DNA of 64,000 nt, taken from Thermodesulfobacteriota bacterium (GTDB taxonomy: Bacteria; Desulfobacterota; Desulfobacteria; Desulfobacterales; SURF-7). The notes under the pieces are model-generated. The model had not been told where the DNA came from and searched no databases. It saw nothing but the letters and a program-made list of their open reading frames with translations. Both the position numbers and the translations under genes were made by a program. Below are positions 37,184 through 61,532 of this stretch, piece after piece. The stretch is from NCBI GenBank assembly GCA_049320885.1, contig JBMORA010000001.1, forward strand, positions 402,622 to 466,621. The letters run 5' to 3'. Within the stretch, counting starts at the first letter, position 1. Every line of letters starts with the position of its first letter.

Positions 37184-37651
37184 TTAAAAGGGCGACCCGG
37201 ACTTGGGCGGCGCCAAATCCGCCACCCACCTCCCGTCTTCCTGAAGCCAATTTTCCTGAAGGATTGCCCCGGGTATCAGAAAACCCATCTGCTTGATATC
37301 GAACCGGACGCTCACCTTGGCCCTGGTTTTATCCTCTGAGAACGTAATCCCGGCGATTTCGAATTTCTCAATCCGTGAGCGGCATTTGGACCGGTTGTCC
37401 TCCAGGGTAACCTGCCGGCGGTAGAGAGCTGAAGCGTTTTCGTAAATGACGTCGCAATCCCCGTCCACTTTGGCCTGCCAGACCACCGCCACCCGTTCCC
37501 GCAAATCCTGTTCGGACACTTTCGGAAACAGATGCGCGCAACCGAGAAAAGCGAAAACCAGCGCCCACGCCGCGATGGCCATCCCCATCGCAGCAAATCG
37601 GGCGCCGATGCCACCAAGCCCGTGATCGGATCTCTTTTTTTCCATCGCCAC
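37184..37651 (-). CDS. Putative lipoprotein (NTF2-like small domain)
   Basis: Hydrophobic signal ending in lipobox FLGC; LRERV..W.AK and W...DG.W pattern. Confidence 0.7.
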   Translation of the reverse strand: MAMEKKRSDHGLGGIGARFAAMGMAIAAWALVFAFLGCAHLFPKVSEQDLRERVAVVWQAKVDGDCDVIYENASALYRRQVTLEDNRSKCRSRIEKFEIAGITFSEDKTRAKVSVRFDIKQMGFLIPGAILQENWLQEDGRWVADLAPPKSGSPF

Positions 37652-37662: not shown

Positions 37663-38625
37663 TTACCGGTTCCCCGATGTCCTTCTTTTGGCCAGGTTGC
37701 GTTGTGTCTCGAATTCTTTTTCCAGGGCATCAAATTCCGGATCCGATGCCACGGACGGTGTCAATTCCTTTAAAAAGCTTTCCTGCCGCTCGATTTTCCC
37801 GTTCCGGTCCAGCCATATCCGGATGACCCCCACATGTTTCCCGCCCATGCTGGATTTCAGCAGAATCTTGCCATGGACCACCGCCGGCTCGAAATCATAA
37901 TAATACTGGTGTCCCACGATGATCACATCGATGCCGTCCACCTCATTCGCCAGTCGCACGCTTTCGTCCCAGCCGGCATGGGACAGCAGGACAACGAGGC
38001 CGGTTTCCTTTTTCAGGGCCGGCAGGACGGCCTTCAGGGATGAAACCATATCCCGCACTTCGATTCCATCCGCACCTGTCCGGGCCGGGTCCGTGAAACC
38101 GGCGGAAACGACCCCCACCACGCCGATCTTGACGCCGTTGACGGTTTTCGTATGGTAGGGTTTCCAGGCGTATTCCTTGCCCACAAAGGTATTCGAGCCG
38201 ATGAAACCCGGCTGAATCGAGTCCCGGAAACGCTGCAAGAAAGGCAGGCCATACCCCAGCTCACCGTCCGCGACATTCATGGCGTCATATCCCAACATCT
38301 TCAGGGCTCTTGCGGTAAACTCGGCCCTCAGTTCCGCCGGTTCTTCCTGGCTCCAGAAAAAATCCCCGGCATCCACCAGCAGGATGTCGCCGTATTCCTT
38401 CCGCAGCTCCGCAACATAGCCGGCCCGCCGGGCCAGCCCGCCAGGGGCGTTCGTTGCTCAGCCAAAGCATTTGATATGCCCCTGGCCGTCGCTGGTGTAG
38501 GCGATCACCACATCCGGCGGGGCGGCCTGTTTGCTTTCCGCGCCCTGGCCCGGGCCCACGGATCCGAGGCCCACCGCCAGAACCAGAACAACGCTCCATA
38601 ACCGACAGGAAAAGAAACACCTCAT
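37663..38625 (-). CDS. UshA-like (5'-nucleotidase N-domain) secreted selenoprotein, Sec56 in a CxxU motif
   Basis: ORFs 38458-38652 and 37663-38376 are in frame across a single TGA (38460-38458): YTSDGQGHIKCFG-U-ATNAPGGLARRA...LLVDAGD. GAGGAGAGG RBS; signal peptide; SECIS-like hairpin downstream. Confidence 0.88.
38411..38457 (-). promoter_or_regulatory. Candidate bacterial SECIS element
   Basis: Directly 3' of the UGA: outer GCAAC/GUUGC stem and inner GCUGGCCC-[GGC]-GGGCCGGC stem; the apical loop starts with G, 28 nt after the UGA. Confidence 0.72.
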
Positions 38626-38676
38626 GAATGACCTCTCCTCGTAACCTGACACTCAACCAATGAACCATATTCCATC

Positions 38677-38711: not shown

Positions 38712-38718
38712 TTTGCTT

Positions 38719-41184
38719 TTACCGGTACAGTTCCGCTCCGCTGAGCAACCCGAGGCTCCCGTCACCATAGAGGAAAAGTCCCATGATGCCGTTGCCGTCG
38801 GCGGTGATCCGCACCCAGGGCAGCTCCGGCAAGCGGGTTTCCGGGAAAACCTCGCCGAGGTTGAAAACGGCCTTGGTAAAAGGCGCAACGGTCAAAACCA
38901 CCTCCTCCCCCGGCACCATTTCACCGTTCCGGCCCATGGGAGTCAGGGTCACCGCAACACCCATCGGCCCCGGGTTGTACAGCGCGACTCCGGTCCACCA
39001 ATCGCCGTCCCGGGCGATGTGGGGAATGGCCAGTTGATTCACGCCCTGATCCAGGGCCATGAGTTCAAAAGCCGCGCTGCTGACGGCGGTCTTATAGGTG
39101 AAATAACCGGCGACGGGGGTCTGGGCGGTGATCTGCAGGGCTCCCTGGGCCAGCTCCTCCTCCGTCATCGCCGGAAACAGGTCGACGATGGACCGGGTTG
39201 TTTTTTCATAGGGCATCAACTCCAGCGGAACCGGTTCGCCGCCCTGGCCATTCACCATCCGGCATTCAACGGCATTGACGGCGCCGCCCGGATTGATCAA
39301 GGTCATTTCCGTACGCCAGACGCCGGAAACCGCCACATGGGGAATGATCATCCGGGTATCGGTCCGGGTCAGGGCAAACAGGCTGTCCGGACCGCCGGAA
39401 TCGTTTTTGAGCCAGCGGGAAAAGCCGTCCACGCCGGCAGCGGTGTCCGGGACAGAGGTCTGCACGTCGATCCAGCCGTTTTCAATGGCTTTGTAAAACG
39501 GATTGGCGCTGGGCGAGTACCGCAGGACGGAACCGGCCGGAAGATGGATGCCCGCCTGGCGCTCCGGTATTCCCTGGGCGCTGTACAGCAGGCAATTCAA
39601 CTCCACGGCCTGGGCGAAGCGGTTGACCAGCCCCCAGGTGACGACCTTGCTGGTGGAAAAAAGTCCGGAAGTATCGGGTATCATCCATCGTCCGGCGCCG
39701 GATCCGCCGGGCTGGCCGAAACCGGCCAGGCTTTGCCGGCCGATGCCGTCCAGGGAAATCATCGCCGCCGGGTCGTCGCATAACAGTTTCAGGGCCTTGA
39801 TCGAGGCTTTTTCGTGCAGACGCATGGGCAGGCTTTCCGCCAGCCAGACATCCTTTTGCCGGGGGCCGATTTCGTAAGGCCCCTTGAGGGTGGCCACAGG
39901 CCGGGAGGCGCTGTCATAGGCGACGATCTGGACATCGGTGAGCGGGAGATCGAAGGTATTGGTGATGGCGACCCCGTTCCAGGCCGATCCCTTTTGAAGA
40001 TCGGGAATCCATTGTTCGTTGGCCTTGGACTGGTCGAAAACGATGCGGTAAATTCCCCCTCCGCCGTAGTTGTCGCGGCGGACGTTCAAGCGATAGGGTG
40101 GATTTTCCGCTGCAAGGGTCAGGGTGGCCGTATCATTGAGTTCCGCCTGCCATACCATCCGGCCGGCCGCATCCAGGAGGTCAATCCGGATGCCGTCCTC
40201 CAGGGTATCGATCTTCTCGAACCCAAACGCCAGCCGGTCGCCGGAACCGGCGTTGATGGTATAGGCATCCTCGTTCAGCAATATCAGGTTGTAATTGCCC
40301 GGCGTCAACTGCACGGCTCCCGTGTTTTCCAGAAAATCATCCTTGTGCAGGGAAATGGACCGGATCAGCTCATAGTTGAGAAAGGGATTGGTGGCCTGGG
40401 GCGCCAGCGGATAAAATACCGAGCGGGGCGGGCTCCCGGCGCTGGTGCCGGTCCATTCGCCGCCGGTGATTTCATTCCGGGCGTTGAGATAGAGAAGATA
40501 GGTGTAAATCTTTGTCTTGACCACCGTACCCTGGATATCCGGATGCACGTTGTCGTCGGCGTACCAGATCTGGCAACGCACCTCCTTGCCGGCACTGGTG
40601 TTGGTGAGCTGCATGTCATACTGGAAAATGGGGTAAAACCAGGCTTCCGTGGCCGAACCGAGATTGGCCACAAAGGCCCGGCGGTGAACCTTGATATAGT
40701 TCAACAGCCAGGCGTGAAAAATCTCCGGGTTGTACCGCACCGATTCGCTGATGGTCAGGTCGCTGCCATGGCAGGCGGAGAGCAGGCCTTTTTTGTCCCC
40801 CACCCGGAAAATGATATTATTGTAGGAAGAGGGGTAAAAAACGATGTTTTCATAGGCTGCGGCCGCGGCCCAGGCATGGCATTGGCCGTTCCAGCTTTCC
40901 GCGTCCGGGTCGTAATGGTTGGCCAGTTCCCACTGGGTGGTGGCGCCCGGATAGGTTCCGGTGGTCAGCAGCTCGAACTTCTCGGTGGGCGCCGGATGGC
41001 CGAAATTGGCATAGCCGTTGGCCAGGGCGCCGCTTCTGGTGGACCACCAATAGCCGGACCAGGGCCGAAAATAGGTTTCCGCCGCATCCGTGCCGGCCAG
41101 GGCCTGGAACGGCGGAGCCAACAAAACCGCCCACAACACGGAGGTCATGACAAGGGCGGCTGCATGGAAGGTCTTGGTTTTCAT
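38719..41184 (-). CDS. Secreted protein: N-terminal GP42/elicitor-type transglutaminase-like domain plus four C-terminal beta-rich repeats
   Basis: Signal peptide; PWSGYWW, SWNGQCHAWAAAA, FRVGDKKGLL, NPEIFH, AWFYPIFQY, YTYLL..N...EITGGEW. Confidence 0.78.
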   Translation of the reverse strand: MKTKTFHAAALVMTSVLWAVLLAPPFQALAGTDAAETYFRPWSGYWWSTRSGALANGYANFGHPAPTEKFELLTTGTYPGATTQWELANHYDPDAESWNGQCHAWAAAAAYENIVFYPSSYNNIIFRVGDKKGLLSACHGSDLTISESVRYNPEIFHAWLLNYIKVHRRAFVANLGSATEAWFYPIFQYDMQLTNTSAGKEVRCQIWYADDNVHPDIQGTVVKTKIYTYLLYLNARNEITGGEWTGTSAGSPPRSVFYPLAPQATNPFLNYELIRSISLHKDDFLENTGAVQLTPGNYNLILLNEDAYTINAGSGDRLAFGFEKIDTLEDGIRIDLLDAAGRMVWQAELNDTATLTLAAENPPYRLNVRRDNYGGGGIYRIVFDQSKANEQWIPDLQKGSAWNGVAITNTFDLPLTDVQIVAYDSASRPVATLKGPYEIGPRQKDVWLAESLPMRLHEKASIKALKLLCDDPAAMISLDGIGRQSLAGFGQPGGSGAGRWMIPDTSGLFSTSKVVTWGLVNRFAQAVELNCLLYSAQGIPERQAGIHLPAGSVLRYSPSANPFYKAIENGWIDVQTSVPDTAAGVDGFSRWLKNDSGGPDSLFALTRTDTRMIIPHVAVSGVWRTEMTLINPGGAVNAVECRMVNGQGGEPVPLELMPYEKTTRSIVDLFPAMTEEELAQGALQITAQTPVAGYFTYKTAVSSAAFELMALDQGVNQLAIPHIARDGDWWTGVALYNPGPMGVAVTLTPMGRNGEMVPGEEVVLTVAPFTKAVFNLGEVFPETRLPELPWVRITADGNGIMGLFLYGDGSLGLLSGAELYR

Positions 41185-41207
41185 GGGTAAGAAAATCGTT
41201 TCGGAGA

Positions 41208-41855
41208 TCAATGGGTTTCCCGCCAGGATCGACGATCGCCGGTGTCTTCGTAGAGCCACCACCGGTCGCCCTCGGCCCATAGCTGACGGACGCGGATGGA
41301 TTTTCCATAATGAACGGAAACCAGTTTCAGGACACGGCCCGTGTGGACATGGGCCTGGTCCGGCGGAATCATTTCCCGGGCCACGGCTTCCGCCAGGGTG
41401 ATGGGGCGGGTCTCTTTGTCGAGGTGATAGGCAAACCCGGTGTCGCCGACCAGTTTGCGACTGACGGCTTGGGTCTGGCCGCTGTCTCCGGGGTTCAGAT
41501 CGTCCAGGGGAAACGGATAGCCCCAGGAAAGGGTGATGGTTTCTTCCGCCCGGGTGTCATGGGTGTAGATGCCGGACAGCCGGTCTTCGATTCTCATCAG
41601 GCGGCCGGTAGCCGCATATTGGAGCATCAGGTCGGGCTGGGCCTGATCGTTGCGGAAAACGGCGTAGGAACCGGATTCCCGGGGAACAAGGCGCCATTTG
41701 ATTTCATTGTCCCAGGCCTGGGTAACGGGATTGAGGTAGCGGCTGCGGATGACGATCCCGGCCGGCTCCGCCGGAGCCGTGGCCGCGAACAGTGCAGCGA
41801 GTGCCGATGTCACGGCGAAAACGATGCTAATGATCTTAAATGGTTTCATTTTCAC
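41208..41855 (-). CDS. Secreted hypothetical protein
   Basis: 215-aa ORF with a signal peptide, colinear within the operon. Confidence 0.7.
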   Translation of the reverse strand: MKMKPFKIISIVFAVTSALAALFAATAPAEPAGIVIRSRYLNPVTQAWDNEIKWRLVPRESGSYAVFRNDQAQPDLMLQYAATGRLMRIEDRLSGIYTHDTRAEETITLSWGYPFPLDDLNPGDSGQTQAVSRKLVGDTGFAYHLDKETRPITLAEAVAREMIPPDQAHVHTGRVLKLVSVHYGKSIRVRQLWAEGDRWWLYEDTGDRRSWRETH

Positions 41856-41879
41856 AATTCAAAACCTGCCGCCCAAAAT

Positions 41880-41916
41880 AAGATGAAGAAGGAATCAGGG
41901 ATTCCTTCTTCATCTT
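41880..41916 (-). terminator. Perfect 17-bp hairpin downstream of the S-layer-like gene
   Basis: AAGATGAAGAAGGAATC-agg-GATTCCTTCTTCATCTT, followed by ATTTT on the - strand. Confidence 0.75.
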
Positions 41917-41973
41917 TACAGCTGCTGTTTCAAGCGCCCGCGTTCAAGCCGGACGTTTCAAACAGGTTGGTGG

Positions 41974-43812
41974 TTAGTTGTTCCACTGGCTGGCGTTGGT
42001 GTAGGCCGTGTAACCGGTGCTGTCGGACCCGTTGCCGGTCATGCCGAAACCGCCGGCGCTGGCGAACTGGGTCACCACCACGATGTGGCAGGACGAGTCG
42101 CCCAAGGTGCCGGTGCCGGCAGTCTGGGTCAGGTTGGCCAGCAGCGTGGAAGCGCCGTATACCGCCAGTCCGCCCGCCGCGATGGAAGGCGTGGTGTAGG
42201 TGCCGACGTCGCCGTCAGACTCGTATACCGTCACCGCGGCGGTGCCGGCGGCTGAAGACGGGTTGCCGATGGTCATGCCATACCACCATCCTTGGGAACC
42301 ATCCAGCGCAACCGCATAGGGATAGTACAGGGTGGTGGTGGGTACGGAAGCCGCACAGGTATCGACGAATTCGGCGATGATGCGGTCGTCGGTGAAAATC
42401 AGGCCGCAGGGCAGTCTGTACAGTTCCACGGTGACGGTGACCTGGTCGCCGTTGTCGAACTGGGCCGGGTCATAGACGACCAGCGGGACATCCACGCGGA
42501 TCACGTTATCGGTGTCGATGCCGGTGAAGGCAGCAGCGGTGGTGAATTCCACCACGCGTTCGCCTGCGGGAATGGCCTGGCAGTCAGCACCGCTGGCATA
42601 GCCGGTAACCGCAACGCCGGTTTCCGTGGCCGGGGTGCCCAGGGCCACAACCGCCGTGCCGGGATCCGAGCAGGGATCTTCGCTCGGCAGGAAGGAAGCA
42701 GCGGTCGGAGCAGCGGCAAAATAAGCGCCGTCGCCGGAGATCGTCAACGTCAAACGGTATTCGTCGTTCGGGTTGAAGAAGGTGCCGCTCTGGTTTTCGA
42801 TCAGCAGGGTGTTGCCGCCGAAGGTGGTGGAGGTGCAGTAGGAAGCTGCCGTCTCATAGTTGAAGGTACAGGAAGAGCTCTGGCCGCCGGCCGGTTCCAC
42901 ATAACCGTACAGATCACCCTTGCAGGCGTCCAGAACGATGGTGGTGGCCGCGATCAGATGGGCAACCTGGGGGTTGGAGGGGTTGAAGGTCAGGAAGTTG
43001 TTGCCATCCACACCGCCGGAGTTGATGCTCACGTTGATGGTGGTGCCGCTGTACTGGGCGCTGTTCACCGTCACGCAGATGTTGTTGTCCCAGTCGGCGT
43101 TGTACTGCAGCACGTCCGCGGCAGCGCCGGGACCGGCAATGCCGTCGCCGTAGATGCCGTCGCCGTCATAGTCCTTGACCGCCAGCTGGGCGCCGTTGGT
43201 GGGCACGGTGACGCCGTCATGGGGGTTGTTGTCGAACAGTTTGATCTGGAACTCGGTGCCGGGCTCGACGGTGAGGGAAGAAGAACCGTCATAGTTGGCG
43301 GCATTGTTGATGCCCAGGGCGTTGTCTTCGTCGTAGACATCGATGCGGATCCGGCTGGAGCCGCTGGTGCCGCGCACGCGGAAAACGATTTCCTGACCGG
43401 CTACGGTGATGCCGGCGTTGGTGCCGTCACCCACGGTGCCGACATCCTTGATGGCCCACAGGTAATTGTCAACCACCGCGCCGGTGTCGCCGATATCGGT
43501 GGTGGCGAAGCCGGAGTTGCCGGCGGGCAGGGGCACGGTGTCGGCGCCCAAGGCCGCGCCCAGGACCAGGAAGTCAAAAGACTGGCAGAGGGTGACGCCC
43601 AGGGGCATGTCCATGGTGACCCAGTCGCCGTCACGCAGCACGGTGCCGCCGTCGAAAATCAGGGTGACGTTACCGGTTTTTTCACAGGCATTCGCCGCAG
43701 CGGTGATGCCTTCCGAGTTGGTTTTCACTTCGACCTGTTGCGCGGCCATCGCGGACATGGTGATTCCCATGACCAGCATCAACGCCGCCATGACTACAGT
43801 AAATTTTCTCAT
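41974..43812 (-). CDS. Probable S-layer / major surface protein
   Basis: GGAGGA RBS; Sec signal peptide; very acidic, T/G/A/V/D-rich, few K/R; strongly C-ending codons; DYDGDG Ca-binding-like loop; no C-terminal TM anchor; followed by strong hairpins. Confidence 0.65.
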   Translation of the reverse strand: MRKFTVVMAALMLVMGITMSAMAAQQVEVKTNSEGITAAANACEKTGNVTLIFDGGTVLRDGDWVTMDMPLGVTLCQSFDFLVLGAALGADTVPLPAGNSGFATTDIGDTGAVVDNYLWAIKDVGTVGDGTNAGITVAGQEIVFRVRGTSGSSRIRIDVYDEDNALGINNAANYDGSSSLTVEPGTEFQIKLFDNNPHDGVTVPTNGAQLAVKDYDGDGIYGDGIAGPGAAADVLQYNADWDNNICVTVNSAQYSGTTINVSINSGGVDGNNFLTFNPSNPQVAHLIAATTIVLDACKGDLYGYVEPAGGQSSSCTFNYETAASYCTSTTFGGNTLLIENQSGTFFNPNDEYRLTLTISGDGAYFAAAPTAASFLPSEDPCSDPGTAVVALGTPATETGVAVTGYASGADCQAIPAGERVVEFTTAAAFTGIDTDNVIRVDVPLVVYDPAQFDNGDQVTVTVELYRLPCGLIFTDDRIIAEFVDTCAASVPTTTLYYPYAVALDGSQGWWYGMTIGNPSSAAGTAAVTVYESDGDVGTYTTPSIAAGGLAVYGASTLLANLTQTAGTGTLGDSSCHIVVVTQFASAGGFGMTGNGSDSTGYTAYTNASQWNN

Positions 43813-44095: not shown

Positions 44096-45547
44096 TCAGT
44101 TGTCCGTGGAAACCGGTAAACCGATTTTCCAGGCGTTCCAAACGCTGCCTGCTCCCCCATCCGTCCAATTCTCGTTGTTCAGCACCCCCGGCCAGATCAC
44201 CAGCCGCGTGCCTCCCGGATCCAGCGGCAGTTCCAGCCCGCCGACCGCATCCGTGGCCAGCTCCAGCTTGACATTGGGATAATCGACAAACAGCGGCAAT
44301 CCCGGGATTCCTTCGCCCGGATCGAACAGGTTGTTGCCGTTTCCATCCGCGTAGGCCACGCCCATGACCCGTGATGTCCCGGCCGCCGCCGGCGTCGCGA
44401 AGACAACCGTCACCAGATACAGATGGCGGAATTCCTCCCCCTCCCGCGGTGCCACCGGGCGCAAGCCGATGCCCATTTCCGTCAGGGCCGGATGGAACAA
44501 CTGCCGGGCCTCGCTCCCGCTTTCGCTGAAGGCCCGAAACAGCAATTGCTCGAACACCGCCTCACTCACCTCCGCCAGGGGCGTTTCCGGTTCCAGGGCG
44601 AGGATATCGATGATCTGGGCGAACTCCCGCGGTTCATACCCGGCTGCCTTCAGCCTGTCCGGAGTCGACCGGCCGTCATATCCGTTGGGATCGAAATACC
44701 GGTGAGCCGCCATTTCCTCGGTGTGGGCCTGCGCGGCCCAGCCCAAGGTTTCATCGGCGGACAATGCCTGCATGCCGCTGGTCAGCGCGGCGCGCCATTC
44801 GGGTCGGGTTGTCAGAATGGTTTCCGGATTCAAGCCCATCGCGGCAGCCACCTCTACCGGTTTGGTTCTTGCCTGGTTGATCAGATGCGCCAGAATTGTC
44901 TCCGCTTCCTGCAGGGAGCCGACCTGCGATGCACCTGAAACGCCAAAATCGCATACGGCAAGATACACATTGTAGGCAGTTTTCCCAATCGTCAATGATC
45001 CGGTCTGGACGCCGATACCGATATGGGTAAAATGGGGGTTGAGCAACTTACGCTCCACGTCGGCGCCGGTTTGCAGCTCATCTAAAAACATGTTTTTAAA
45101 CAAAATGTCAACTGCTTTTTGCGGTTCGATGAAATTTTTGAAGGCCACCAGCCCCAGGCTTTCACCGGTCATAAGCGGCATAAACCCCTGAAACCGTATT
45201 CGATCCTCATGGGTTAAGCCGTCCGGGGAAACGGTGCTGTAATAATTCCGGGCCAGCATATCCCCGGTATGTTCGCGGGCCGCCGCCGAAAGCGATTCCT
45301 GCGCCTGCAGGGGCATGAGCCCGCTGTTCAGGATATCACCGAATTCCGGCAGGGCTGCGAGCAGCGCCTTCGGGTCTTTCCCCAGGGAGGCCGCCGTCGC
45401 CAACGGATTGGAGCGGGCCGCATTGATCCGGTTCATCAGCATGGCTTCCATATTCCTGGACTGATCATATGGTTCATCCGCCCGGGCCACGCCCGCCACC
45501 GGCAAGGCAAACAGAAAAAGCAATATGAAGCGGAGGCAATATGTCAT
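44096..45547 (-). CDS. Secreted protein with two CAP (SCP) domains and a C-terminal SdrD-B-like module
   Basis: Two INxAR...L..AA..H..M....YF...DG...DR...G...GIG units; VMGVAYADGNGNNLFDPGEGIPG. Confidence 0.82.
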   Translation of the reverse strand: MTYCLRFILLFLFALPVAGVARADEPYDQSRNMEAMLMNRINAARSNPLATAASLGKDPKALLAALPEFGDILNSGLMPLQAQESLSAAAREHTGDMLARNYYSTVSPDGLTHEDRIRFQGFMPLMTGESLGLVAFKNFIEPQKAVDILFKNMFLDELQTGADVERKLLNPHFTHIGIGVQTGSLTIGKTAYNVYLAVCDFGVSGASQVGSLQEAETILAHLINQARTKPVEVAAAMGLNPETILTTRPEWRAALTSGMQALSADETLGWAAQAHTEEMAAHRYFDPNGYDGRSTPDRLKAAGYEPREFAQIIDILALEPETPLAEVSEAVFEQLLFRAFSESGSEARQLFHPALTEMGIGLRPVAPREGEEFRHLYLVTVVFATPAAAGTSRVMGVAYADGNGNNLFDPGEGIPGLPLFVDYPNVKLELATDAVGGLELPLDPGGTRLVIWPGVLNNENWTDGGAGSVWNAWKIGLPVSTDN

Positions 45548-45562: not shown

Positions 45563-45578
45563 TGCAACGAAAATGCCA
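45563..45578 (-). promoter_or_regulatory. sigma54 (-24/-12) promoter
   Basis: TGGCATTTTCGTTGCA, i.e. GG-N10-GC with TTGCA; AT-rich tract upstream (about 45628-45660); NtrC-type activator encoded nearby. Confidence 0.65.
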
Positions 45579-45899: not shown

Positions 45900-48005
45900 T
45901 TACCACTTGTATCGCAACATCACCTGGACGGTCCGGGGCGGCCCCTCGATGACCCGATACTGTCCCGGCTGGGTGTATTCCCGGTCCAACAGATTCCGAA
46001 CCGACAGGGTCAACTCCATGCTCGGAATCACGAAACGGTGGACCGTGGCATTCCAGTCCAACAGCCAGGCCTCCTTGCAGGTGATGACCGCTTCCTCCCG
46101 GGGATGGATCAGGTCCCGGGCAGAGATATACCGCAATATGCCCGTGGTGCTGAACCGCTGGACGGGTCGCCAGGTACCGATCAGATTGAACAATCGGTCA
46201 GGCCCCAGATCGTAGGGATAAACCAGTTCGACATAGTGTTTTTCGACGCTGCCGTCCGGCCGGATGAAATCATAATCGTTGTACAGGTATTTCTCATCCG
46301 GCCCGCTGTTGCTCAGCACCGTGAAATTGAGTTCCACATCCAGGGTGTCATGGGGATGCAGGCGGGTTTCGAATTCAAGCCCGTTGATTGTCTGCGTGTT
46401 GGGACTGCTCAAGCCCGCGTAGGGATCCTCCATCACATGATTGGCGATACGGTTGTTGAAGCCGCAGAGCGACATATCCAAAACCATGGAGGGCTTCCAG
46501 GCGACCTGGGCGCTGAGATTGGTGATTTTCTCCGGCTCGAGTTCGTCTTCTTCCCGCAGCTGGCTCGCATAGGGCGTGCGGAAAGCCGTTCCGTGAAACA
46601 GCTTGACCACCCACTGCCGGTTCGGCGACCAGACCAGCCCCGTATTGTAGCTGACGGCGTCATCGTATTCATCGTGGGCATCGTTCCGAAGCCCGAGCAG
46701 TATATCCACCGGCCCCATTTTGTGGACGTACTGACCGAAAACAGACACCAGGCGTGTATGATAATCCACCTGATCGAGTTCGGGCAGCAGGTTTTCGTTT
46801 TCCGGCCCCAAATAGTCCGGCAGATAGCCGTCCCAGATGAGAGCGTCATCGACCCGCCGGTCCCGGTAGGAAGCCCCGGCGGTCAGCAACCCCCGTCCCG
46901 CCATCAGGGTGTGATCGAAAATCAGTTCCGTGTAGAAACTGTTTTCATTCTGCTCGATGGTGCGATCGATGATATCGTATTCCGGATTCAGCATACTGTA
47001 GCTGGCGGTGAAACGAAGCGCGGAACGAAAGTCGAGACGCTGTTTGCTTTCCAGTTTCAGAAAACCGGAAGGTACTCTTTCCGTTTCGCGCCAGGTATAG
47101 TCCCCTCCCTGTTCCGCCAGGGCATAGGGATGCCGGTAATCGGATATCCGGCCGGAAAGGGAAAAGCGTTCGCCGTGGGAAACCCGGCCGGCAGCCTCCA
47201 CATACTGGGAATCTCCGACGCTTGCCGTACCGTATCGGTTCTCGGGAGGAACCGCCTCTTCCAGATCGCCCCAGAATCGGACGACATTGACATCGCCGTC
47301 CTCCTCCTGCTGCTGATGGTGGGCGCTGACCGAAAAAAATGCATCCCAGTTTCCCGAAAGGAATCCGGCGTTGGCATAGGCGCCCACCGGATGACCGGGC
47401 TCCCCGAAATAGCCGCCCACCTCGCCGCCCTGCACATCCCGGCCGGTGAGGGGGACAATATTGACCACCCCGGCAAAAGCGTCCGGACCCCACAGGACCG
47501 AACCCGGTCCGCTGACGATTTCGATCCGCTTCACCGATTCGAGCGACATCTCCCTGTCCAGAAATTGCAGCGATTTGGATACCTCCGAACCCATCGGCAC
47601 CGTATCGTATAAACAAAGGATGGAATTGGAGACGCCGCGCATATAGGCTTGCGTGCCGCTTTCGCGGCCGGCCATGTGGAATCCAGGCACCAGCGCCAAG
47701 GCTTCACCGAGGGTGGAAACTCCGCGTTCACGGATCTGTTCCCTTGTGACCACGTGGGCCACAGCCGGCACCTGCCAGGCGCTTTCCTCCCGGCGCGTGG
47801 CAATGGACAAAACGTCCAGCGACTCTCCAACAAACATGAGCAACGTATCGCTTTCGGCCGCTCCATCCGGCTTCACTTCGCCTTCAGCCCCGGCTCCCGC
47901 TCCCGGCCGGATCAATACGACCATCAGACAGCAGCACAGGAAAAGATTGCCCACCCGATGAAACAGCCTTGCGATTCCGCGCAGGATAAAATCGTTTTTT
48001 TTCAT
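45900..48005 (-). CDS. TonB-dependent outer membrane receptor
   Basis: Plug motif RIEIVSGPGSVLWGPDAFAGVVNI; TAFRTP, LEPEK, VRNLLD; C-terminal YKW. Confidence 0.92.
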   Translation of the reverse strand: MKKNDFILRGIARLFHRVGNLFLCCCLMVVLIRPGAGAGAEGEVKPDGAAESDTLLMFVGESLDVLSIATRREESAWQVPAVAHVVTREQIRERGVSTLGEALALVPGFHMAGRESGTQAYMRGVSNSILCLYDTVPMGSEVSKSLQFLDREMSLESVKRIEIVSGPGSVLWGPDAFAGVVNIVPLTGRDVQGGEVGGYFGEPGHPVGAYANAGFLSGNWDAFFSVSAHHQQQEEDGDVNVVRFWGDLEEAVPPENRYGTASVGDSQYVEAAGRVSHGERFSLSGRISDYRHPYALAEQGGDYTWRETERVPSGFLKLESKQRLDFRSALRFTASYSMLNPEYDIIDRTIEQNENSFYTELIFDHTLMAGRGLLTAGASYRDRRVDDALIWDGYLPDYLGPENENLLPELDQVDYHTRLVSVFGQYVHKMGPVDILLGLRNDAHDEYDDAVSYNTGLVWSPNRQWVVKLFHGTAFRTPYASQLREEDELEPEKITNLSAQVAWKPSMVLDMSLCGFNNRIANHVMEDPYAGLSSPNTQTINGLEFETRLHPHDTLDVELNFTVLSNSGPDEKYLYNDYDFIRPDGSVEKHYVELVYPYDLGPDRLFNLIGTWRPVQRFSTTGILRYISARDLIHPREEAVITCKEAWLLDWNATVHRFVIPSMELTLSVRNLLDREYTQPGQYRVIEGPPRTVQVMLRYKW

Positions 48006-48072
48006 AACCGATTTGATTCCCATCCAAAACGACCCGCATCCGTCATTCGCGATTGCCGATCCGTCATATCCC

Positions 48073-49416
48073 TCATCCAAGATTTTTCAGGAACACCCGG
48101 AGCTTTGCCCGGGTCAGCCCCAGCAATTTGGCCGCCTGGGTCTGGTTGTTGCCGGTCATCCGCAGGGCCTGATGGACCATTTCCTTGTTGAAATCCTCCA
48201 GACAAATCCCCCCCGGTGGCAGCTGGAAGTTCCGGGAACCCGGGTCGGAAGCACCAGCATTGTTCAAAAAAGAAAGCGTTTCGGCCGTAATGGCTTCCCG
48301 GTCCGATCCGATGATCATGGCCCGCTCCATGGCATTGGCGAGTTCCCGGACATTACCCGGCCACCGGTAGGCCGTCAGCATGCGCCCCGCGCCGTCGGTC
48401 AATTCCATGGCCCGGCCTTCTCCGAGGAGATTGAGAAAATGCTGGCACAGGGGCAGAATATCCTCCGTCCGTTCCCGCAGGGGAGGCAGTTCAATGGGCA
48501 CCACATTGATGCGGTAAAACAAGTCCTGCCGAAAACGGCCGTTCCGGACCGATTCCATCAGGTTTTGATTGGTGGCGCATATGAAACGTGCATCCACGGG
48601 TATTTCCTCGTTTCCTCCCACGCGCCGGACGGTTTTTTCCTGGAGGGTCCGCAGCAGCTTGGCCTGGGCTTCCAGCGGCAGGTCGCCGATCTCGTCCATC
48701 AACAGAGTGCCCTGGGAGGCGAATTCAAATTTCCCCTTGGTTCTTCGTTCCGCCCCCGTGAAAGCGCCTTTTTCATATCCGAACAATTCCGATTCCACCA
48801 AGGAAGCCGGGATGGCCGCGCAGTTGATGGGCACGAAACGACCGTTTCTCCGTCCGCTCTGGCTGTGTATGTATCGGGCCAACAATTCCTTGCCGGTCCC
48901 GGACTCGCCTTGAATCATCACCACCGAGTCGCTGCGGGCCACCTTGGCCGCCAGTTCCATCACGGACTGCATCGCCTTGGAGCGATAGACGATGTCGCCG
49001 GCGCCGGCCACCAGGGAAAGCTCCCGCTTCAGTTCCTTGTTTTCCTGTATCACTCTGGAAAAGTTCAAGGTTCTTTCAATAGTGAGCTGGATGCGGTCCT
49101 CCTCGAACGGTTTGGTGATATAATCGGAGGCCCCCATGCGCATGGATTCCACCGCCGAGTCCACGGTGGCGAACGCAGTGATGAAAACGAAGGGACACGG
49201 CAGGTCTTCCGCCTTGACCTTCTGCAGCAGTTCGACGCCGCTCATGCGGGGCATCTTGATATCGCTGATCACCATGTCATAAGGTGTTTCCTTGATCTTC
49301 GCATATGCCTCCAACCCGTCCGAGGCCTGTTCCGTTGTATGACCGTTTCGCTGCAGCAACAGGGCCAGGAGATGACGCATTTTTTCTTCATCATCGACGA
49401 TCAGTATGTGAGCCAT
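48073..49416 (-). CDS. sigma54-dependent response regulator (NtrC family)
   Basis: REC domain; GESGTGKE, ESELFGYEKGAFTGA, WPGNVREL; Fis-type HTH NQTQAAKLLG. Confidence 0.96.
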   Translation of the reverse strand: MAHILIVDDEEKMRHLLALLLQRNGHTTEQASDGLEAYAKIKETPYDMVISDIKMPRMSGVELLQKVKAEDLPCPFVFITAFATVDSAVESMRMGASDYITKPFEEDRIQLTIERTLNFSRVIQENKELKRELSLVAGAGDIVYRSKAMQSVMELAAKVARSDSVVMIQGESGTGKELLARYIHSQSGRRNGRFVPINCAAIPASLVESELFGYEKGAFTGAERRTKGKFEFASQGTLLMDEIGDLPLEAQAKLLRTLQEKTVRRVGGNEEIPVDARFICATNQNLMESVRNGRFRQDLFYRINVVPIELPPLRERTEDILPLCQHFLNLLGEGRAMELTDGAGRMLTAYRWPGNVRELANAMERAMIIGSDREAITAETLSFLNNAGASDPGSRNFQLPPGGICLEDFNKEMVHQALRMTGNNQTQAAKLLGLTRAKLRVFLKNLG

Positions 49417-49512
49417 TGTCTTCACTCCTTCCAATCGGATATCTTTCCCCCCGCCTTCCCCCCTCTGCGTCGACCGTGGGCCGCAACCGGCTTCTTGCCG
49501 CATGGTGCATGA

Positions 49513-50934
49513 CTATCTTCCCTGCTGCAGGGGAATGTCCACCGTGAAAAGCGCCCCACCCGAATCGGCATCCTCCACCAGGATGAACCCTCCATGGGAT
49601 TTGAAAACCTGGGAGGCGAACGCCAGCCCCAGGCCCGTGCCTTTGGCTCGTGTTGTGAAGAACGGTTCAAAGATTTTTCCCTTGTCATCCGGACGAATGC
49701 CACCGCCGTTGTCCTCGATCTGCACCCGCCAGCGGTCGAAATCGACTTCCGCCTTGATCCGCACATATCCGTTCTCCCCCGCCGCCTGGCAGGCATTTTC
49801 GATGATGTTGCCGAAAGCCCGGACCATCAAATCACGGTCCGCATGACGGATCGCCGGCCGTTCCGGCAGATCGAGATTCAACTGCAGGGCGGACTGATGG
49901 TGCAGCATTTCAAAACGCCGGAATACATCATCCAGCATCTGATTGAGATCAACGGTCCGGAAAACCGGTTTCGTCGGTCTGGCGAACTGCAGAAAGGCCT
50001 CGATCATGCTGTTAAGGCGGCGGATTTCATCCTCGATATAACCCACCAGGGTCTGCTCGCTGCTCAGGTTGTAATCGCGCTTGATCATATCCAGGGAAGT
50101 TTTGATAATGGCCAGCGGATTTTTCACCTCATGGGCGATCATCAGGGAAAATTTTCCCATTTCCGCCAGGGATTTCTGCTTCATCATTTCCCGGTTCACC
50201 CGGGCAAGATCCTCCTGGCTTTCCTTCAAGGAATCCAGCATGGCGTTAAACGATTTCGCCAGCGCCCTGGTTTCCGGCAATTTACCGGGCCGGGCTCTCA
50301 ATTCGAAGTCCCCCCGGCCGATGTGCATGGCGGTGGCGGTCAGTTGTTTCAATTCGGAACCGATGGGCCGGGACACGAAATAAAACACCAGGCCGGCAAT
50401 CAGTGCCAGACCCAGGGACATCCAGATGAATCTGCGCGCGATATCGGCCATCAGCAGATCGATTCCATGGGTGCTGAAGTGGATGCGCACCTTGCCGATA
50501 TGGTCCACGATCGCGGTCCGCACGGGTTCGAAAGGGGTACGCGCCACGACTTTCCCGCCGGAAAATACGATATTCTCGTCGCTCGCCCGCTTGAAAACCA
50601 CCGGCGTCTCCACCAGCGACAGGGGGCCTTCGGCGGATCGGGACAAATCCACCAGCGTATTGTTGTGATTATCCAGAATCAGCACCCGCGCCACATCCTT
50701 TTCCCCCAGCAGGTTATGAGCCAGATTTTTCAGTCCCTCCTTGTCATTGATCAGGACCCCCACTTCCGAATTCAGGGCCAGGTACCGGGCCAGAAACGCT
50801 ATCCGGTCCTCGAAGCGCTCATGCATGAAACGGCTGGTGATCCGCACCCCCACGATGCCGAAAATGGCCGTGGAAGCGCCGATCAGCACAAAAGCCGCCA
50901 GCAGAAAGCGCGTATGGATACCGGGACTTTTCAC
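49513..50934 (-). CDS. HAMP-domain sensor histidine kinase
   Basis: Two TM helices, HAMP, AHEVKNPL, NIIENA, DNGGGI, FEPFFTTRAKGTGLGL. Confidence 0.95.
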   Translation of the reverse strand: MKSPGIHTRFLLAAFVLIGASTAIFGIVGVRITSRFMHERFEDRIAFLARYLALNSEVGVLINDKEGLKNLAHNLLGEKDVARVLILDNHNNTLVDLSRSAEGPLSLVETPVVFKRASDENIVFSGGKVVARTPFEPVRTAIVDHIGKVRIHFSTHGIDLLMADIARRFIWMSLGLALIAGLVFYFVSRPIGSELKQLTATAMHIGRGDFELRARPGKLPETRALAKSFNAMLDSLKESQEDLARVNREMMKQKSLAEMGKFSLMIAHEVKNPLAIIKTSLDMIKRDYNLSSEQTLVGYIEDEIRRLNSMIEAFLQFARPTKPVFRTVDLNQMLDDVFRRFEMLHHQSALQLNLDLPERPAIRHADRDLMVRAFGNIIENACQAAGENGYVRIKAEVDFDRWRVQIEDNGGGIRPDDKGKIFEPFFTTRAKGTGLGLAFASQVFKSHGGFILVEDADSGGALFTVDIPLQQGR

Positions 50935-51926
50935 GGCTTCTCCTCTTCCTTCTCGCCGCCGGCCTGCCCTTCAAAGGGAATGTGCAACGCCTCCAGCACC
51001 TGATGGTTCAGCAACACCTTGAAGGCGGGAACGGCCAGATGGCAAGGGCGCCCTTCCAGCCGGTCCAGCCCCATGGCTGCCGCCTGTTTCCCGATGGCCT
51101 GGTAATCGCACACCAGGCCCAGCGCCGCGCCGCTGTCGGTAAAAAACCGATTGTATCCCAGCACCGCCACGTTGCTGGCAATGGCTTCCTTGATCAGGAA
51201 CAGGATAATGCTCTCGGAAATCACCGTGTGGTCCGGAATCACCCACAAGGCGTTGATGTCCTTGCGGTGTTTTTTAAAAACCGCCAGGATGTCGCTGCGG
51301 GATTTCACCGTGAGGGGGACGATGTCGATACCGTGATCCCGGGCCGCCGCCGCCGCGCCGGCCGCGAAATCACTGTTGTTGGCGGGGTCATAGATCAGGC
51401 CGATCCGCCTGGTCTTGGGCAATTTCCGGCCGATCTCCCTGACCTGGATTTGGGCCGGGATGTCCAACGGGATTCCGCACCACCCCTTGGCTTCCGGCAC
51501 GATCTTTTCCGGATGCAGCACCATGGCGAAAACCTTGGGAACCGTTTCATCCGGAAAGGTTTTCCAGATCAACTCCATGGCCTCCGGACCGACGGCGATC
51601 AGCAGATGGAAACGCTCCTTTTTCAGCCGGCGGATCAAAACCGTGTGATCCGGGTCCGTCTCCGGTTCCAGAAACGACACGTCCAACGACATATGGTCTT
51701 TCTGTTCGAAAGAAGATTGGATTCCCTGGAGTGCATCCAGATACGGCCTGATTTTCTGGGAAACCACCACCGCCGCGCTGGAAGGCGGCGGATTTTCCGC
51801 AGGCAAGACCCGGCCGGCCGCCATTAGCGTCACCATCAGACTCGCCATCAGGACCGGCAACAGACCGACGCCCGTCCTTCGCGGTGCTGCAAAAACCGCT
51901 TTCTCCTTTTGGCCGCCTGGTCTCAT
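50931..51926 (-). CDS. Periplasmic ABC-type substrate-binding protein (no transporter adjacent)
   Basis: LIAVGPEA, RIGLIYDP, ALWVIPD, GA...DYQAIGKQAA; overlaps the histidine kinase start by 4 nt. Confidence 0.85.
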   Translation of the reverse strand: MRPGGQKEKAVFAAPRRTGVGLLPVLMASLMVTLMAAGRVLPAENPPPSSAAVVVSQKIRPYLDALQGIQSSFEQKDHMSLDVSFLEPETDPDHTVLIRRLKKERFHLLIAVGPEAMELIWKTFPDETVPKVFAMVLHPEKIVPEAKGWCGIPLDIPAQIQVREIGRKLPKTRRIGLIYDPANNSDFAAGAAAAARDHGIDIVPLTVKSRSDILAVFKKHRKDINALWVIPDHTVISESIILFLIKEAIASNVAVLGYNRFFTDSGAALGLVCDYQAIGKQAAAMGLDRLEGRPCHLAVPAFKVLLNHQVLEALHIPFEGQAGGEKEEEKP

Positions 51927-51937: not shown

Positions 51938-54292
51938 TTATCGTCCGGTTTCGATCCTGTTTCTGAAATCCCTGGTTACATCATCCACCGCGCTCAAATC
52001 GGCGATGACCCGCGGAGTGATCAGCACGATCATTTCGTTGCGACTGGTTTTATTCGTGTTTTTCCCGAACAGATAGCCGAGCACGGGGATGTCTTTCAAA
52101 TACGGCACCCCGGAATCCCCTTCCGATGTGTCATTTTTGATCAGGCCGCCGATGACGATGGTCTGGTTATGCCCCACGGTCAGATTCGTGGAAACGCTGC
52201 GCTGGAAAAAGGAAGGGTATGCGACGCCGCCCACCAGTACATCGCCGGCCACGTCGCTGACCTCCTGGTTGACGGTCAGGCTCACCAGACCGTTGTCGTT
52301 GATATGGGGCGTGACCGACAGGATGATGCCGGTGTTGCGATACTGGATATTGGTCTGGACCATGGACTCATTGCTCAGGTTGGTGGTGTTGTACACGGCG
52401 CTGGCCACCGGAACTTCCGTGGAGATATTGATTTTCGCCTCCTTGTCGTTGGAAGCCAGGACGGTGGGCGAGGAGAGCACATTGACCCTGTTTTCCTTGG
52501 CAAGGGCCGACAGGGTCGCCGACCAGCGCGCGGTCTGCCCCATCACGTAGGTGAGGCCGTCCACTCCCATGCTGGCGCTCAAGACTTCGGTGCTCGGACC
52601 GCCTTTGCCGCTGACATACCGCCACTCGACACCAAATTCCTCCGAATCGGACAGCGTGATATCGGCGATCATGACTTCGATCAACACCTGGCGCGGCAGG
52701 ACATCCAGGGATTCCAGCATGCGTTGAATAATCTGATAATCCGAAGGGATCGCTTCGATAATCAAAGCGTTGCGGGAGAGATCCGGTGTTATTTTGATCG
52801 GTGCCCGGAGGGTGCCGGAGCCGATTTCGCCGAATTCCCGCGGGGTCTGGGGTTTGGAGCCGCCGGCCGCCGGCTTGGCGATGGCAAAGGGATTGGGGGA
52901 GGTTTTGACGGTTTCCGCTTCCTGAGCGCCGCCGGCTTTCTTGGCGCCGGCCTTTTCCTGCCCGGTTTTGGTCTCGGAAGCGGTCTTGAATATTCCGTCC
53001 AGCAGGCCGGCCAATTCCCCGGCCTGGCCGTTCTTGACCTTGTAGACATACAATTGGGGGGCGACGGTCTCATTGGGGCCGTCCAGGGTCTTGAGGAGCT
53101 GGGCCACCTTTTCGATGACCCGGGGCTGCCGGCTCATCACCAGCAGCATGCCCAGCCGGTCGATGGGAATCAACCGGACATCCGTCTCGGAAGCACTGTA
53201 ATAGACCGGCAGGGCGTCCTGCAGCACCTTGATGATGTCCTCCATCGTGTTGTATTCGATCCGGAAAAACCGGTGGCCGACCCCGGCGAACATGTCCAGA
53301 TCGAAACTTTCCACCAGCTTCAAGGCCTTGGCGACATTGACCCCCTTGTCCACCAGCAGGATGGAATTGGAATTATCCGGGGCCACCATGGTTCCCTCGG
53401 AGGAGATGAACGGCGTCAGGATTTTCATCATTTCCGCGGAATGGATATTCTTCAGGGGAATGATCTGCATGAGCACCCGCTCCCCGGGAGGCAACGCCTG
53501 GCTTTCCGCCTCCTGCCGGGTCAGCATCGGCATCCGGGCCGCTTCCTTGAGGCTCGTGATGTTATATACCGCCCCTTCCTTGACGGCCGTCAATCCGTTG
53601 GTCTCGAGGATTTGAAAAAAAACCGGGAACAAATCCCGGGGGCTGATGGTGCCGGCGGTATGCAGGGTCACCCGCCCGCGCACAGCGGGGTCCACGATAT
53701 ACGAGATTTTCAGGATATCCGCCATGGTCCGGATGACTTCATACAGATCGGCGTCATCAAAATTGAGCGTCACTTTTTCCTTTTCGGATTTCGCGGCCTC
53801 GGGGGCGGCTTCCTTGCCCCTTGCCTCCGGGGATGTCATACCGGCCCCCGGCTGTTCCTGTTTCGTAGCCGGTGCTGTCCGCCGGATGTCCGCGGGCTCT
53901 TCGCTCTCTATTGCCGGTGCTTCGGGGGCCGGCTCCGCTTTCACCGGAGCGGGCGCCGGACGCCGGTCCGCACTTGTTTCCTTCCGGGCGGCAGCCGGTT
54001 TTGGGGTGGCGGCGGGCTCCTTTTCCGATTTTCCGGAAGGCGGGCCGGCTTCCGCGGGCTGCTTCATCATGCCGAAGGGCGTGCTGACGATCCGGTATGT
54101 TTTTCCGTTTTCCGTCACCAGTTTGGGAAAATCCTTCTGCAGCATCTCTCCGCCGGCCGGCCCGGAGGCGACCCCGGCGCTGCCGGATTCCGCCCGGCCA
54201 TCCCCCGGACCCAGAAAGCACATACACACAAAGGCCGCAATACCCGGCACCATCCTACAGCATCTGCCGATTGATCTTGTAATTCGCATCAT
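51938..54292 (-). CDS. gspD: Type II secretion secretin
   Basis: TLNFDDADL (N0 domain), LDVLPRQVLIEV, NVLSSP, TGIILSVTPHIN, VPYLKDIPVLGYLF. Confidence 0.95.
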   Translation of the reverse strand: MMRITRSIGRCCRMVPGIAAFVCMCFLGPGDGRAESGSAGVASGPAGGEMLQKDFPKLVTENGKTYRIVSTPFGMMKQPAEAGPPSGKSEKEPAATPKPAAARKETSADRRPAPAPVKAEPAPEAPAIESEEPADIRRTAPATKQEQPGAGMTSPEARGKEAAPEAAKSEKEKVTLNFDDADLYEVIRTMADILKISYIVDPAVRGRVTLHTAGTISPRDLFPVFFQILETNGLTAVKEGAVYNITSLKEAARMPMLTRQEAESQALPPGERVLMQIIPLKNIHSAEMMKILTPFISSEGTMVAPDNSNSILLVDKGVNVAKALKLVESFDLDMFAGVGHRFFRIEYNTMEDIIKVLQDALPVYYSASETDVRLIPIDRLGMLLVMSRQPRVIEKVAQLLKTLDGPNETVAPQLYVYKVKNGQAGELAGLLDGIFKTASETKTGQEKAGAKKAGGAQEAETVKTSPNPFAIAKPAAGGSKPQTPREFGEIGSGTLRAPIKITPDLSRNALIIEAIPSDYQIIQRMLESLDVLPRQVLIEVMIADITLSDSEEFGVEWRYVSGKGGPSTEVLSASMGVDGLTYVMGQTARWSATLSALAKENRVNVLSSPTVLASNDKEAKINISTEVPVASAVYNTTNLSNESMVQTNIQYRNTGIILSVTPHINDNGLVSLTVNQEVSDVAGDVLVGGVAYPSFFQRSVSTNLTVGHNQTIVIGGLIKNDTSEGDSGVPYLKDIPVLGYLFGKNTNKTSRNEMIVLITPRVIADLSAVDDVTRDFRNRIETGR

Positions 54293-54295
54293 AAG

Positions 54296-55018: not shown

Positions 55019-55039
55019 GCGCGATTTTTCATGCCCCGG

Positions 55040-55630: not shown

Positions 55631-55657
55631 GGCCGCCACTATCTCCGAATTCAATTT

Positions 55658-57058: not shown

Positions 57059-57100
57059 GGGAATTCTGCTTCCCGGTCCGTATTTCCTGGTTCACGCTCC

Positions 57101-58153: not shown

Positions 58154-58172
58154 GATGTTTCGCCGATGGTTC

Positions 58173-59796: not shown

Positions 59797-59797
59797 G

Positions 59798-60226: not shown

Positions 60227-60237
60227 TCTCGCTTCCC

Positions 60238-61467: not shown

Positions 61468-61497
61468 AATGCTGTTTACAATCGACTCCCATCCACC

Positions 61498-61532
61498 ATT
61501 CGTAATTCCCAATTCGTAATTCGTAATTGCGT
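61498..61532. repeat. Tandem heptamer array (ATTCGTA consensus, 5 units)
   Basis: ATTCGTA ATTCCCA ATTCGTA ATTCGTA ATTGCGT. Confidence 0.85.

Follow-up and report, generated by a model that had tools for sequence, protein, structure and literature searches.

A GP42-type cysteine enzyme of Desulfobacterota with repeats homologous to the C-terminal domain of a neighboring surface-layer-like protein

The window analyzed here is a 64,000-nucleotide stretch from a Thermodesulfobacteriota bacterium (GenBank assembly GCA_049320885.1, contig JBMORA010000001.1, positions 402,622 to 466,621). On its minus strand it carries a gene (38719..41184, stop codon included) for a secreted, multi-domain cysteine enzyme of the GP42 type (Pfam TGase_elicitor, PF16683), 821 amino acids (aa) long and designated TG below. 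Close by is the gene for SL, a surface-layer-like secreted protein of 612 aa beginning MRKF (41974..43812, minus strand), whose C-terminal domain recurs in TG as four tandem repeats. The evidence observed consists of the family membership of TG, its domain architecture, the domain shared with SL, a conserved gene order, co-occurrence of the two families, and a setting that includes type II secretion system (T2SS) genes and a sigma-54-dependent regulator. Our preferred reading, to which a probability of roughly 0.45 is assigned, is that TG is an exported cysteine enzyme, docked by its SL-type repeats, that modifies SL covalently, most likely by cross-linking.

TG scores 46.7 bits (E 2.6e-12) against PF16683, for which the curated cut-off is 25, and the same match is found in 24/24 aligned relatives. 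When a profile of 118 relatives (alignment A2: 118 of 120 listed, leaving out P0016 for its long foreign N-terminus and P0019 as partial) was searched against Protein Data Bank (PDB) sequences, the sole sequence with E<=1 was 3tw5_A (GP42 of Phytophthora sojae, PDB 3TW5), matched in four collinear stretches at E 5.1e-13. The single TG sequence reaches 3tw5_A by phmmer at E 0.0019, also in four collinear stretches; NCBIfam has no matching model for it. To judge by these scores, the resemblance to PF16683 is far beyond chance and TG is a genuine member of the known GP42/TGase_elicitor family, which bears out both the family assignment and the motif order put forward in the initial annotation of this DNA.

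The reading frame as called runs 38719..41280 (all parts of TG being on the minus strand); the likeliest start is the ATG at 41184, giving 821 aa, because all aligned relatives begin there and the longer reading overlaps the preceding gene (stop at 41208). The span originally annotated as GP42-like, 40370–41090, corresponds to residues ~33–272, that is, to the GP42-like domain, and the motifs quoted in support of it are all present where they had been placed: WSGYWW (residues 42–47, 41044–41061), WNGQCHAWAAAA (98–109, 40858–40893), GDKKGLL (129–135, 40780–40800), NPEIFH (152–157, 40714–40731), and AWFYPIFQY (181–189, 40618–40644), as computed from the sequence. The codon of the putative nucleophile, Cys102, is TGC at 40879..40881, exactly as annotated, and His103 follows directly.

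In the alignment with GP42, WNGQCHAW of TG falls onto WFGISHAW, with Cys102 opposite the Ser of “GISHAW” in 3tw5_A; this Ser is reportedly the C290S mutation of the GP42 crystallized by Reiss et al. (2011). The collinear blocks held in common are PWSGYWW; W-G-x-C-H-A-W; GD-K; FH...EVW-x-P; and GGEW...P. Both proteins belong to the same Pfam family above its cut-off, are secreted, and have a Cys directly before a His. A correspondence to the Pep-13 segment had also been claimed: AWFYPIFQY does align with it (EAWFYPIFQYDM of TG against EVWNQPVRGFKV of GP42), but only W and P are identical, at 2 of 11 aligned positions, and the plant-immunity epitope of GP42 is therefore not conserved; the segment is a core block of the family. 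Other differences are larger. Only ~260 of the 821 residues of TG are GP42-like, the middle domain and four repeats having no counterpart in GP42; the histidine of the GP42 DHP motif is a Pro in TG; and TG is bacterial and linked to a T2SS and a sigma-54 regulator. According to PMC10318531, the GP42 active site is unusual in having Cys then His directly (a “CH” motif) with an Asn/Asp partner, GP42 is placed within the papain-like superfamily, and the sole characterized PF16683 member is a transglutaminase.

Conservation of the putative catalytic residues is uneven. Cys102, Asp130, Lys131, His139, His157, and Asp216 are invariant in 118 close relatives; His103 is kept in 21 of these, and His252, also present in GP42, in 109, while TG has Pro at that position. 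An exhaustive search with the N-terminal domain returned 960 cluster representatives at E<=1e-3 (315 at E<=1e-10, 107 at E<=1e-30), and residues were counted in 146 of the best 150, four with older identifiers being left out. Cys102 is kept in 145/146 (one gap), Asp130 likewise in 145/146, and Asp216 in 134/141. Asp130 aligns with an Asp of GP42 and Asp216 is a second conserved Asp, making them candidate partners of a His. It is because the Cys102/Asp130 pair is near-universal that catalysis is argued for here. The histidines are another matter: H103 is found in 55/146, H139 in 92/146, H157 in 108/146, and H252 in 110/141, so that none is universal. At least one of the four is present in 136/139 representatives with residues at both ends, and none of them in 3.

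The adjacent Cys-His pair noted in the initial annotation thus holds for TG itself, whose QCHAW aligns with “ISHAW” of GP42, but with His103 in 21/118 relatives and 55/146 representatives it is no constant of the family. In one whole clade the His precedes the Cys instead (GHCNGW, invariant in 15/15), and 85/139 representatives have a His on one side or the other of the Cys (−1 or +1). A tree of the domain (FastTree, rows with >25% gaps dropped, midpoint root) has CH prevailing in the shorter, outlying clades, whereas within the ~820-aa clades its His has repeatedly given way to other residues (N, D, F, Y, G, A, L, or P). TG falls in a CH-keeping subclade and, on our reading, is among the most GP42-like members of its clade. 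Cross-tabulation of His103 and His252 gives 94/15/6/3; no conclusion about compensation is drawn from this, because the sequences with His103 only are close kin.

Beyond the signal peptide (residues 1–30, 41095..41184; read from the sequence, with a hydrophobic core and Ala-Leu-Ala before the putative cut), TG is built of successive domains. The GP42/TGase_elicitor-like catalytic domain (residues 31–290, 40315..41094) is defined by PF16683, by the profile match to 3tw5_A, and by a hidden Markov model (HMM) search of the bacterium’s own 5.6-Mb genome, which has one PF16683 gene. A middle domain of ~98 aa (residues 291–388, 40021..40314) is evident as a conserved block in the alignment of relatives; no Pfam family matches it in TG or 24 relatives, and hhalign finds it unrelated to the repeats that follow. 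That it might be a PPC domain was ruled out (hhalign probability 0.5% against archaeal PPC repeats; no Pfam PPC match in the 24 relatives).

The rest of the protein is made up of four tandem repeats of ~105 aa each, whose homologue in SL is its C-terminal domain (residues ~495–600, 42013..42330, minus strand; delimited by hhalign and HMM): D1 (residues 389–500, 39685..40020), D2 (501–611, 39352..39684), D3 (612–716, 39037..39351), and D4 (717–821, 38722..39036). Among themselves, the repeats align to D4 with hhalign probabilities of 98.2% (D1), 95.9% (D2), and 98.8% (D3; E 5.9e-17). D4 aligns with the C-terminal domain of the SL family over 92 columns at 97.2% probability and E 4.1e-11, and D1 with the SL C-terminus at 95.1%. 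The homology emerges only in profile-to-profile comparison, because pairwise BLASTP of TG against SL gives a best E of 0.58, located at the WW-x-G...N-P start of the shared domain. Pfam yields a weak DUF5719 match at D4 and, on the repeats of 5/24 relatives, a sub-threshold one, and a literature search on DUF5719 found nothing.

Within its own genome the shared domain occurs in three proteins: once in SL, four times in TG, and four times in an unlinked 934-aa protein (contig C31, 44111–46915, plus strand; = L082:6115–8919), where the copies are in tandem at aa ~526–919. The N-terminal half of the 934-aa protein has two repeats resembling the N-terminal region of SL, and its gene neighbors are unrelated: an aldehyde ferredoxin oxidoreductase, an SDR, and a MacB-like permease.

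SL is exported, acidic (isoelectric point 4.05), and rich in Ala, Gly, Thr, Val, and Asp; the mature protein contains 6 Lys, and Q311 is its sole near-invariant Gln (29/31). Neither Pfam nor a profile search of the PDB assigned it to an enzyme or binding-protein family, the latter search giving just signal-peptide-like noise at E>=0.047. A possible relationship to Slr4 comes from the ESM Atlas, in which SL has a feature score of 0.96 to clusters with Slr4 in 15–20% of their members and its C-terminal part aligns structurally with an Slr4-domain cluster. Slr4 is the abundant, secreted S-layer (surface-layer) protein of Pseudoalteromonas tunicata, its gene lying immediately downstream of the T2SS operon dedicated to it (PMC7821379 and PMC11094555). 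SL is likewise secreted and encoded near a dedicated T2SS operon, with a two-component system, a TonB receptor gene, and a CAP-domain gene in between. Membership of Pfam Slr4 (PF19526) itself was tried as a candidate and rejected, however: SL matches 0 families, and of 26 homologues compared with the Slr4 profile, two gave weak matches to its C-terminal part (E 1.2e-3 and 7.4e-3), below the 25-bit cut-off. A profile search of a large protein collection returned 26 close relatives and no Slr4-annotated protein.

In several respects SL behaves like a major structural gene. Contigs from environmental RNA libraries (4/4 runs, from 2 studies, at >=95% identity) cover it between 41998 and 43959; two short pieces also fall on the CAP gene, and none in the 4 runs on the genes for TG, p215 (the small exported protein encoded between SL and TG), or the UshA-like protein, a lack of cover that carries no weight. 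Directly after the SL stop codon is a terminator- or attenuator-like element (41880..41916, minus strand), a 17-bp perfect hairpin followed by a U-run, with a fold z-score of −5.03 and 0/200 shuffles as stable. A hairpin with T-run follows 23/31 SL-homologous genes, as against 16/138 random 140-nt stretches of the same loci. A simple promoter/terminator scan overlooked this hairpin and found no excess of terminators. It is plausible that SL is an S-layer protein. Codon adaptation was also tried as a proxy for expression and was uninformative (ribosomal-protein genes, mean 0.745; SL, 0.814; histidine kinase, 0.815). Most database relatives of SL are on contigs of 1.9–2.7 kb, or about gene length. 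As a separate observation, the SL family keeps seven Cys (C297, C315, C326, C381, C411, C469, and C486) in 90–100% of its members, and many of its short forms carry additional Cys-rich tails at the N- or C-terminus; for a protein secreted by strict anaerobes, this is out of the ordinary.

The initial annotation described the enzyme as encoded two genes downstream of the S-layer-like gene, and the order is indeed SL (41974–43812), p215 (41208–41855), and TG (38719–41184), all on the minus strand. This arrangement is conserved. Scanning one genome per species yielded 145 relatives, of which the best 80 loci were considered. Nearly all are metagenome-assembled genomes (MAGs) of Desulfobacterota (Desulfobacterales, Syntrophales, Desulfatiglandales, Desulfobulbia), with a few archaeal and Patescibacteria fragments and two isolates, Desulfonema magnum 4be13 and Desulfatitalea alkaliphila M08but. 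By tblastn (E<=1e-4, loci with enough flank only), an SL gene is upstream in 38/52 loci, a CAP-domain gene in 29/43, and a TonB-dependent receptor in 22/39; the 215-aa gene is found in 30/70, the UshA-like gene in 30/63, and a 155-aa lipoprotein gene next to the enzyme in 39/57.

With HMMs of the shared domain, a same-strand upstream open reading frame (ORF) ending in that domain was found in 47 of the 51 loci with at least 3 kb upstream, mostly 0.65–0.95 kb before the enzyme gene and including a clade only ~25% identical; it was missed at L063, L077, L079, and the archaeal L080. An ORF with the C-terminal motif of p215 lies immediately upstream of the enzyme in 38/65 loci and was not found in the ~25%-identity clade. 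The genes for a binding protein, kinase, and sigma-54 regulator are upstream as a trio in about 25 loci (regulator, 56–70% identity). An orthologous secretin is beside the locus in 5/5 relatives checked, and within it in 5 further relatives that are without the receptor and CAP genes.

Co-occurrence was assessed in 401 genomes spread evenly over the phylum; kin among these are not independent, and counts only are given. PF16683 is present in 13 and the SL family in 15, with both in 12, which is to say that the SL family occurs in 12/13 enzyme-bearing genomes vs. 3/388 without the enzyme. In 9 of the 12 shared genomes a single contig carries both genes, no more than a few kb apart. Completeness is 89% for the genome with the enzyme only and 84–90% for the three with SL only.

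What we infer from this for the working of TG concerns its catalytic competence, secretion route, docking, substrate, and chemistry. Sec would take the enzyme through the inner membrane, and the adjacent T2SS probably through the outer one. Repeats D1–D4 may dock it onto whatever the C-terminal domain of SL binds, be it the layer or an anchor of the layer. There Cys102, together with His103 next to it and the near-universal Asp130, could form a thioester acyl-enzyme in the manner of papain-like transglutaminases, the acyl group being a side chain or backbone carbonyl of SL. Resolution of the thioester by an amine would amount to gamma-glutamyl transfer, that is, to cross-linking of SL; this is a first guess from the sole characterized relative. 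GP42 is reportedly active as a Ca2+-dependent transglutaminase. Q311 would be a candidate donor. A pure Gln-Lys cross-link model is weakened, however, because SL is low in Lys.

A number of points weigh against this preferred reading. By its sequence, SL offers thin material for a Gln-Lys cross-linked lattice, with its 6 Lys and one near-invariant Gln, and it stands outside Pfam Slr4; lattice formation is itself conjectural. On the enzyme side, identity to GP42 is low (the single-sequence phmmer E of 0.0019); the 146 representatives lack a universal histidine, and 3/139 carry none of the four; and TG lacks H252, which GP42 and 109/118 relatives carry. Sequence comparison of this kind cannot separate transglutaminase from peptidase chemistry, and the TonB receptor and phosphoesterase of the cluster fit nutrient capture as well as they fit coat building. 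The initially proposed action of the enzyme on the neighboring surface protein, still putative, is nonetheless supported by synteny (47/51), co-occurrence (12/13), and the shared domain.

Cleavage is the main rival to cross-linking because Cwp84/SlpA uses the same design for proteolytic maturation. Cwp84 of Clostridioides difficile, as described in PMC5842191, has a cysteine protease domain, a “lectin-like” middle domain, and three wall-binding repeats shared with SlpA, its substrate. The likeness is one of working and not of homology: in each case a papain-superfamily cysteine enzyme has a middle domain and tandem repeats shared with a layer protein of the same locus (for TG and SL, hhalign 97.2% and 47/51 loci). 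The catalytic families differ, C1A for Cwp84 and PF16683 for TG; the CWB2 repeats of Cwp84 and SlpA are unrelated to D1–D4; anchoring is to a Gram-positive wall in one case, while the other is a diderm with a T2SS; and proteolysis is proven for Cwp84 and hypothetical for TG. TG could by analogy be a peptidase for S-layer maturation or quality control, docked by the layer protein’s own domain and cleaving SL or misfolded copies of it. Its domain logic (Cys domain, middle domain, four shared repeats) is that of Cwp84, GP42 falls within the papain-like superfamily (PMC10318531), and SL is poor in Lys. Such a role is nevertheless considered unlikely: the only PF16683 member characterized, according to the same paper, is a transglutaminase, and the SL alignments, which were not searched systematically for such features, showed neither a propeptide nor a conserved internal cleavage motif.

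The locus might alternatively serve nutrient acquisition, the T2SS exporting enzymes and binders (TG, the CAP protein, the UshA-like phosphoesterase, and, as a binder, the abundant SL) and the TonB receptor importing the products, in which case the shared domain would be a tag for secretion or surface retention and no sign of an enzyme-substrate pair. The unlinked 934-aa protein with its four copies is what would be expected of a general tag; the domain-sharing neighbors found in other clades (see below) are caspase-like proteases or fn3/FG-GAP giants and not one type of substrate; the receptor, the binding protein with its two-component sensor, and the phosphoesterase are moreover conserved in the cluster. 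The near-invariant spacing of SL, small gene, and enzyme (47/51), along with the SL terminator, looks instead like a structural gene with accessories; the receptor matches no nutrient-specific family above cut-off, and SL belongs to no enzyme or binding-protein family. We regard this explanation, too, as having rather poor odds. Least of all is it to be expected that the GP42-like domain is catalytically inert and the protein a structural or adhesive part of the same surface assembly. The family has no universal histidine, and TG is without the His252 found in most relatives and in GP42; but retention of Cys102 and Asp130 in 145/146 representatives, over clades sharing about 30% identity, is hard to explain without catalysis, and TG retains the Cys-His pair to which catalysis is ascribed in GP42. 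Inertness is accordingly rated highly improbable.

Bacterial GP42-type enzymes seem commonly to share a domain with a neighbor. A metagenome scan with an alignment from a different clade (A4) gave 297 relatives and 80 loci, and in 17 of these loci a neighboring ORF shared a domain with the non-catalytic part of the enzyme; where each side has at least 1.5 kb of flank, the figure was 14/28. As these counts are by single-sequence phmmer (E<1e-3), they are a lower bound. The partners tested were DUF4384 plus caspase-like proteins (5/5 of the ~500-aa type), three fn3/FG-GAP giants of 1551–1997 aa, and one esterase-like protein of 1382 aa. At L103, L107, L116, L137, and L148, GP42-type enzymes of ~520–650 aa are followed directly by a DUF4384 plus caspase (Peptidase_C14) protein; the L103 enzyme, the one scanned, carries DUF4384 itself, and the other four share a domain with that neighbor. 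In an archaeal relative (L080:6441–8579, a Thermoplasmata MAG), three PPC domains and TSP3 (Ca2+-binding type) repeats precede a C-terminal PF16683 domain; the cluster of this protein is annotated just as “pre-peptidase C-terminal domain-containing protein.” One could generalize that bacterial GP42-type enzymes are “addressed” by domain copies of a target encoded next door, the present case being a Desulfobacterota-wide coat, an Slr4-like layer exported by a dedicated, sigma-54-controlled T2SS and gamma-glutamyl-stitched by an enzyme docked via four copies of the layer protein’s C-terminal domain. In this full form the proposal is doubtful.

As far as literature searches reach, nothing has been published on the conserved T2SS-linked cluster, on the enzyme in its multi-domain form, or on the docking domain that it shares. 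Judging by its title as cited in PMC10318531, the paper of Reiss et al. describes relatives of GP42 from marine Vibrio. Papers on “transglutaminase elicitor” or PF16683 were all oomycete by title, and no function of a bacterial member was found; searches for a transglutaminase with an S-layer in sulfate reducers, and for an S-layer protein in Desulfobacterota with type II secretion, found none; transglutaminase, S-layer, and isopeptide in combination yielded no such system by title or abstract; and the Slr4 papers (PMC7821379, PMC11094555) contain no mention of a transglutaminase. The locus offers a testable enzyme-substrate pair: TG, SL as its candidate substrate two genes upstream, and the putative docking domain common to both. 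Cultivable carriers of the cluster enzyme are Desulfonema magnum and Desulfatitalea alkaliphila. Gene order and shared domain suggest a possible way of stitching or trimming a bacterial coat. Should SL prove to be the cell coat of the sulfate reducers and syntrophs concerned, both the coat and its enzymatic hardening or trimming would here be described for the first time; otherwise the locus still represents a conserved T2SS secretome module new to the literature.

The remaining genes of the cluster are also on the minus strand. Between SL and TG, p215 (41208..41855) is an exported protein of 215 aa with a conserved C-terminal QLW..WWxYE motif; it matches nothing in Pfam or NCBIfam, and its Atlas structure is LolA/LolB-like (TM ~0.5), which is a lead only. 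Upstream of SL is the gene for an exported protein with two CAP/SCP (YkwD-like) domains (44096..45547; PF00188, E 2.3e-15 in 2 stretches). About 16 nt before its ATG is a sigma-54-type promoter-like site, TGGCATTTTCGTTGCA (45563..45578), with 1 mismatch to TGGCAC-N5-TTGCW. The window contains 21 such sites vs. 28.6 expected by chance; the agreement of this one with the conserved sigma-54 regulator upstream is at most a hint. A 30-nt palindromic element (ATGCCGGA…TCCGGCAT, 45820–45850) between the TonB-receptor and CAP genes matches numerous metatranscriptome contigs that are unrelated in all else and have loose ends to either side, and is thus a widespread hairpin like the repetitive extragenic palindromic (REP) elements.

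Farther upstream are the TonB-dependent receptor-like outer-membrane protein (45900..48080; Plug and beta-barrel), for which no nutrient-specific subfamily scored above cut-off; a binding protein (PF04392), histidine kinase, and sigma-54-dependent response regulator (48073..51926); and a type II secretion set (51938..63049) comprising secretin GspD, GspC-like, M, PilM/N-like, K, J, H, F, and E components. An Rfam search of 36500–52500 returned nothing at E<=1.

Downstream of TG is the gene for a 329-aa UshA-like metallophosphoesterase (37663..38652) that is a selenoprotein, with an in-frame TGA at 38458–38460 (U65, in the context …KCFG-U-ATNAPGGLARR…) at which ORF callers split the gene. Its match to NCBIfam NF041198, “UshA-like (seleno)protein,” stays below the cut-off. 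The position is TGA in 35/38 related loci and Cys in 3; a hairpin after the TGA is no more stable than shuffled sequences (z −1.04). Next comes a 155-aa putative lipoprotein (37184..37651), read from the sequence by its lipobox-like FLGC. Farther downstream, beyond the cluster, at 22793–34010 on the minus strand, is a polysaccharide locus encoding a Wzm/Wzt ABC transporter with the Wzt C-terminal domain, methyltransferases, glycosyltransferases, a sulfatase-like protein of 790 aa, and a radical SAM enzyme; it is unsyntenic in most relatives, and might make a glycan that anchors a surface layer.

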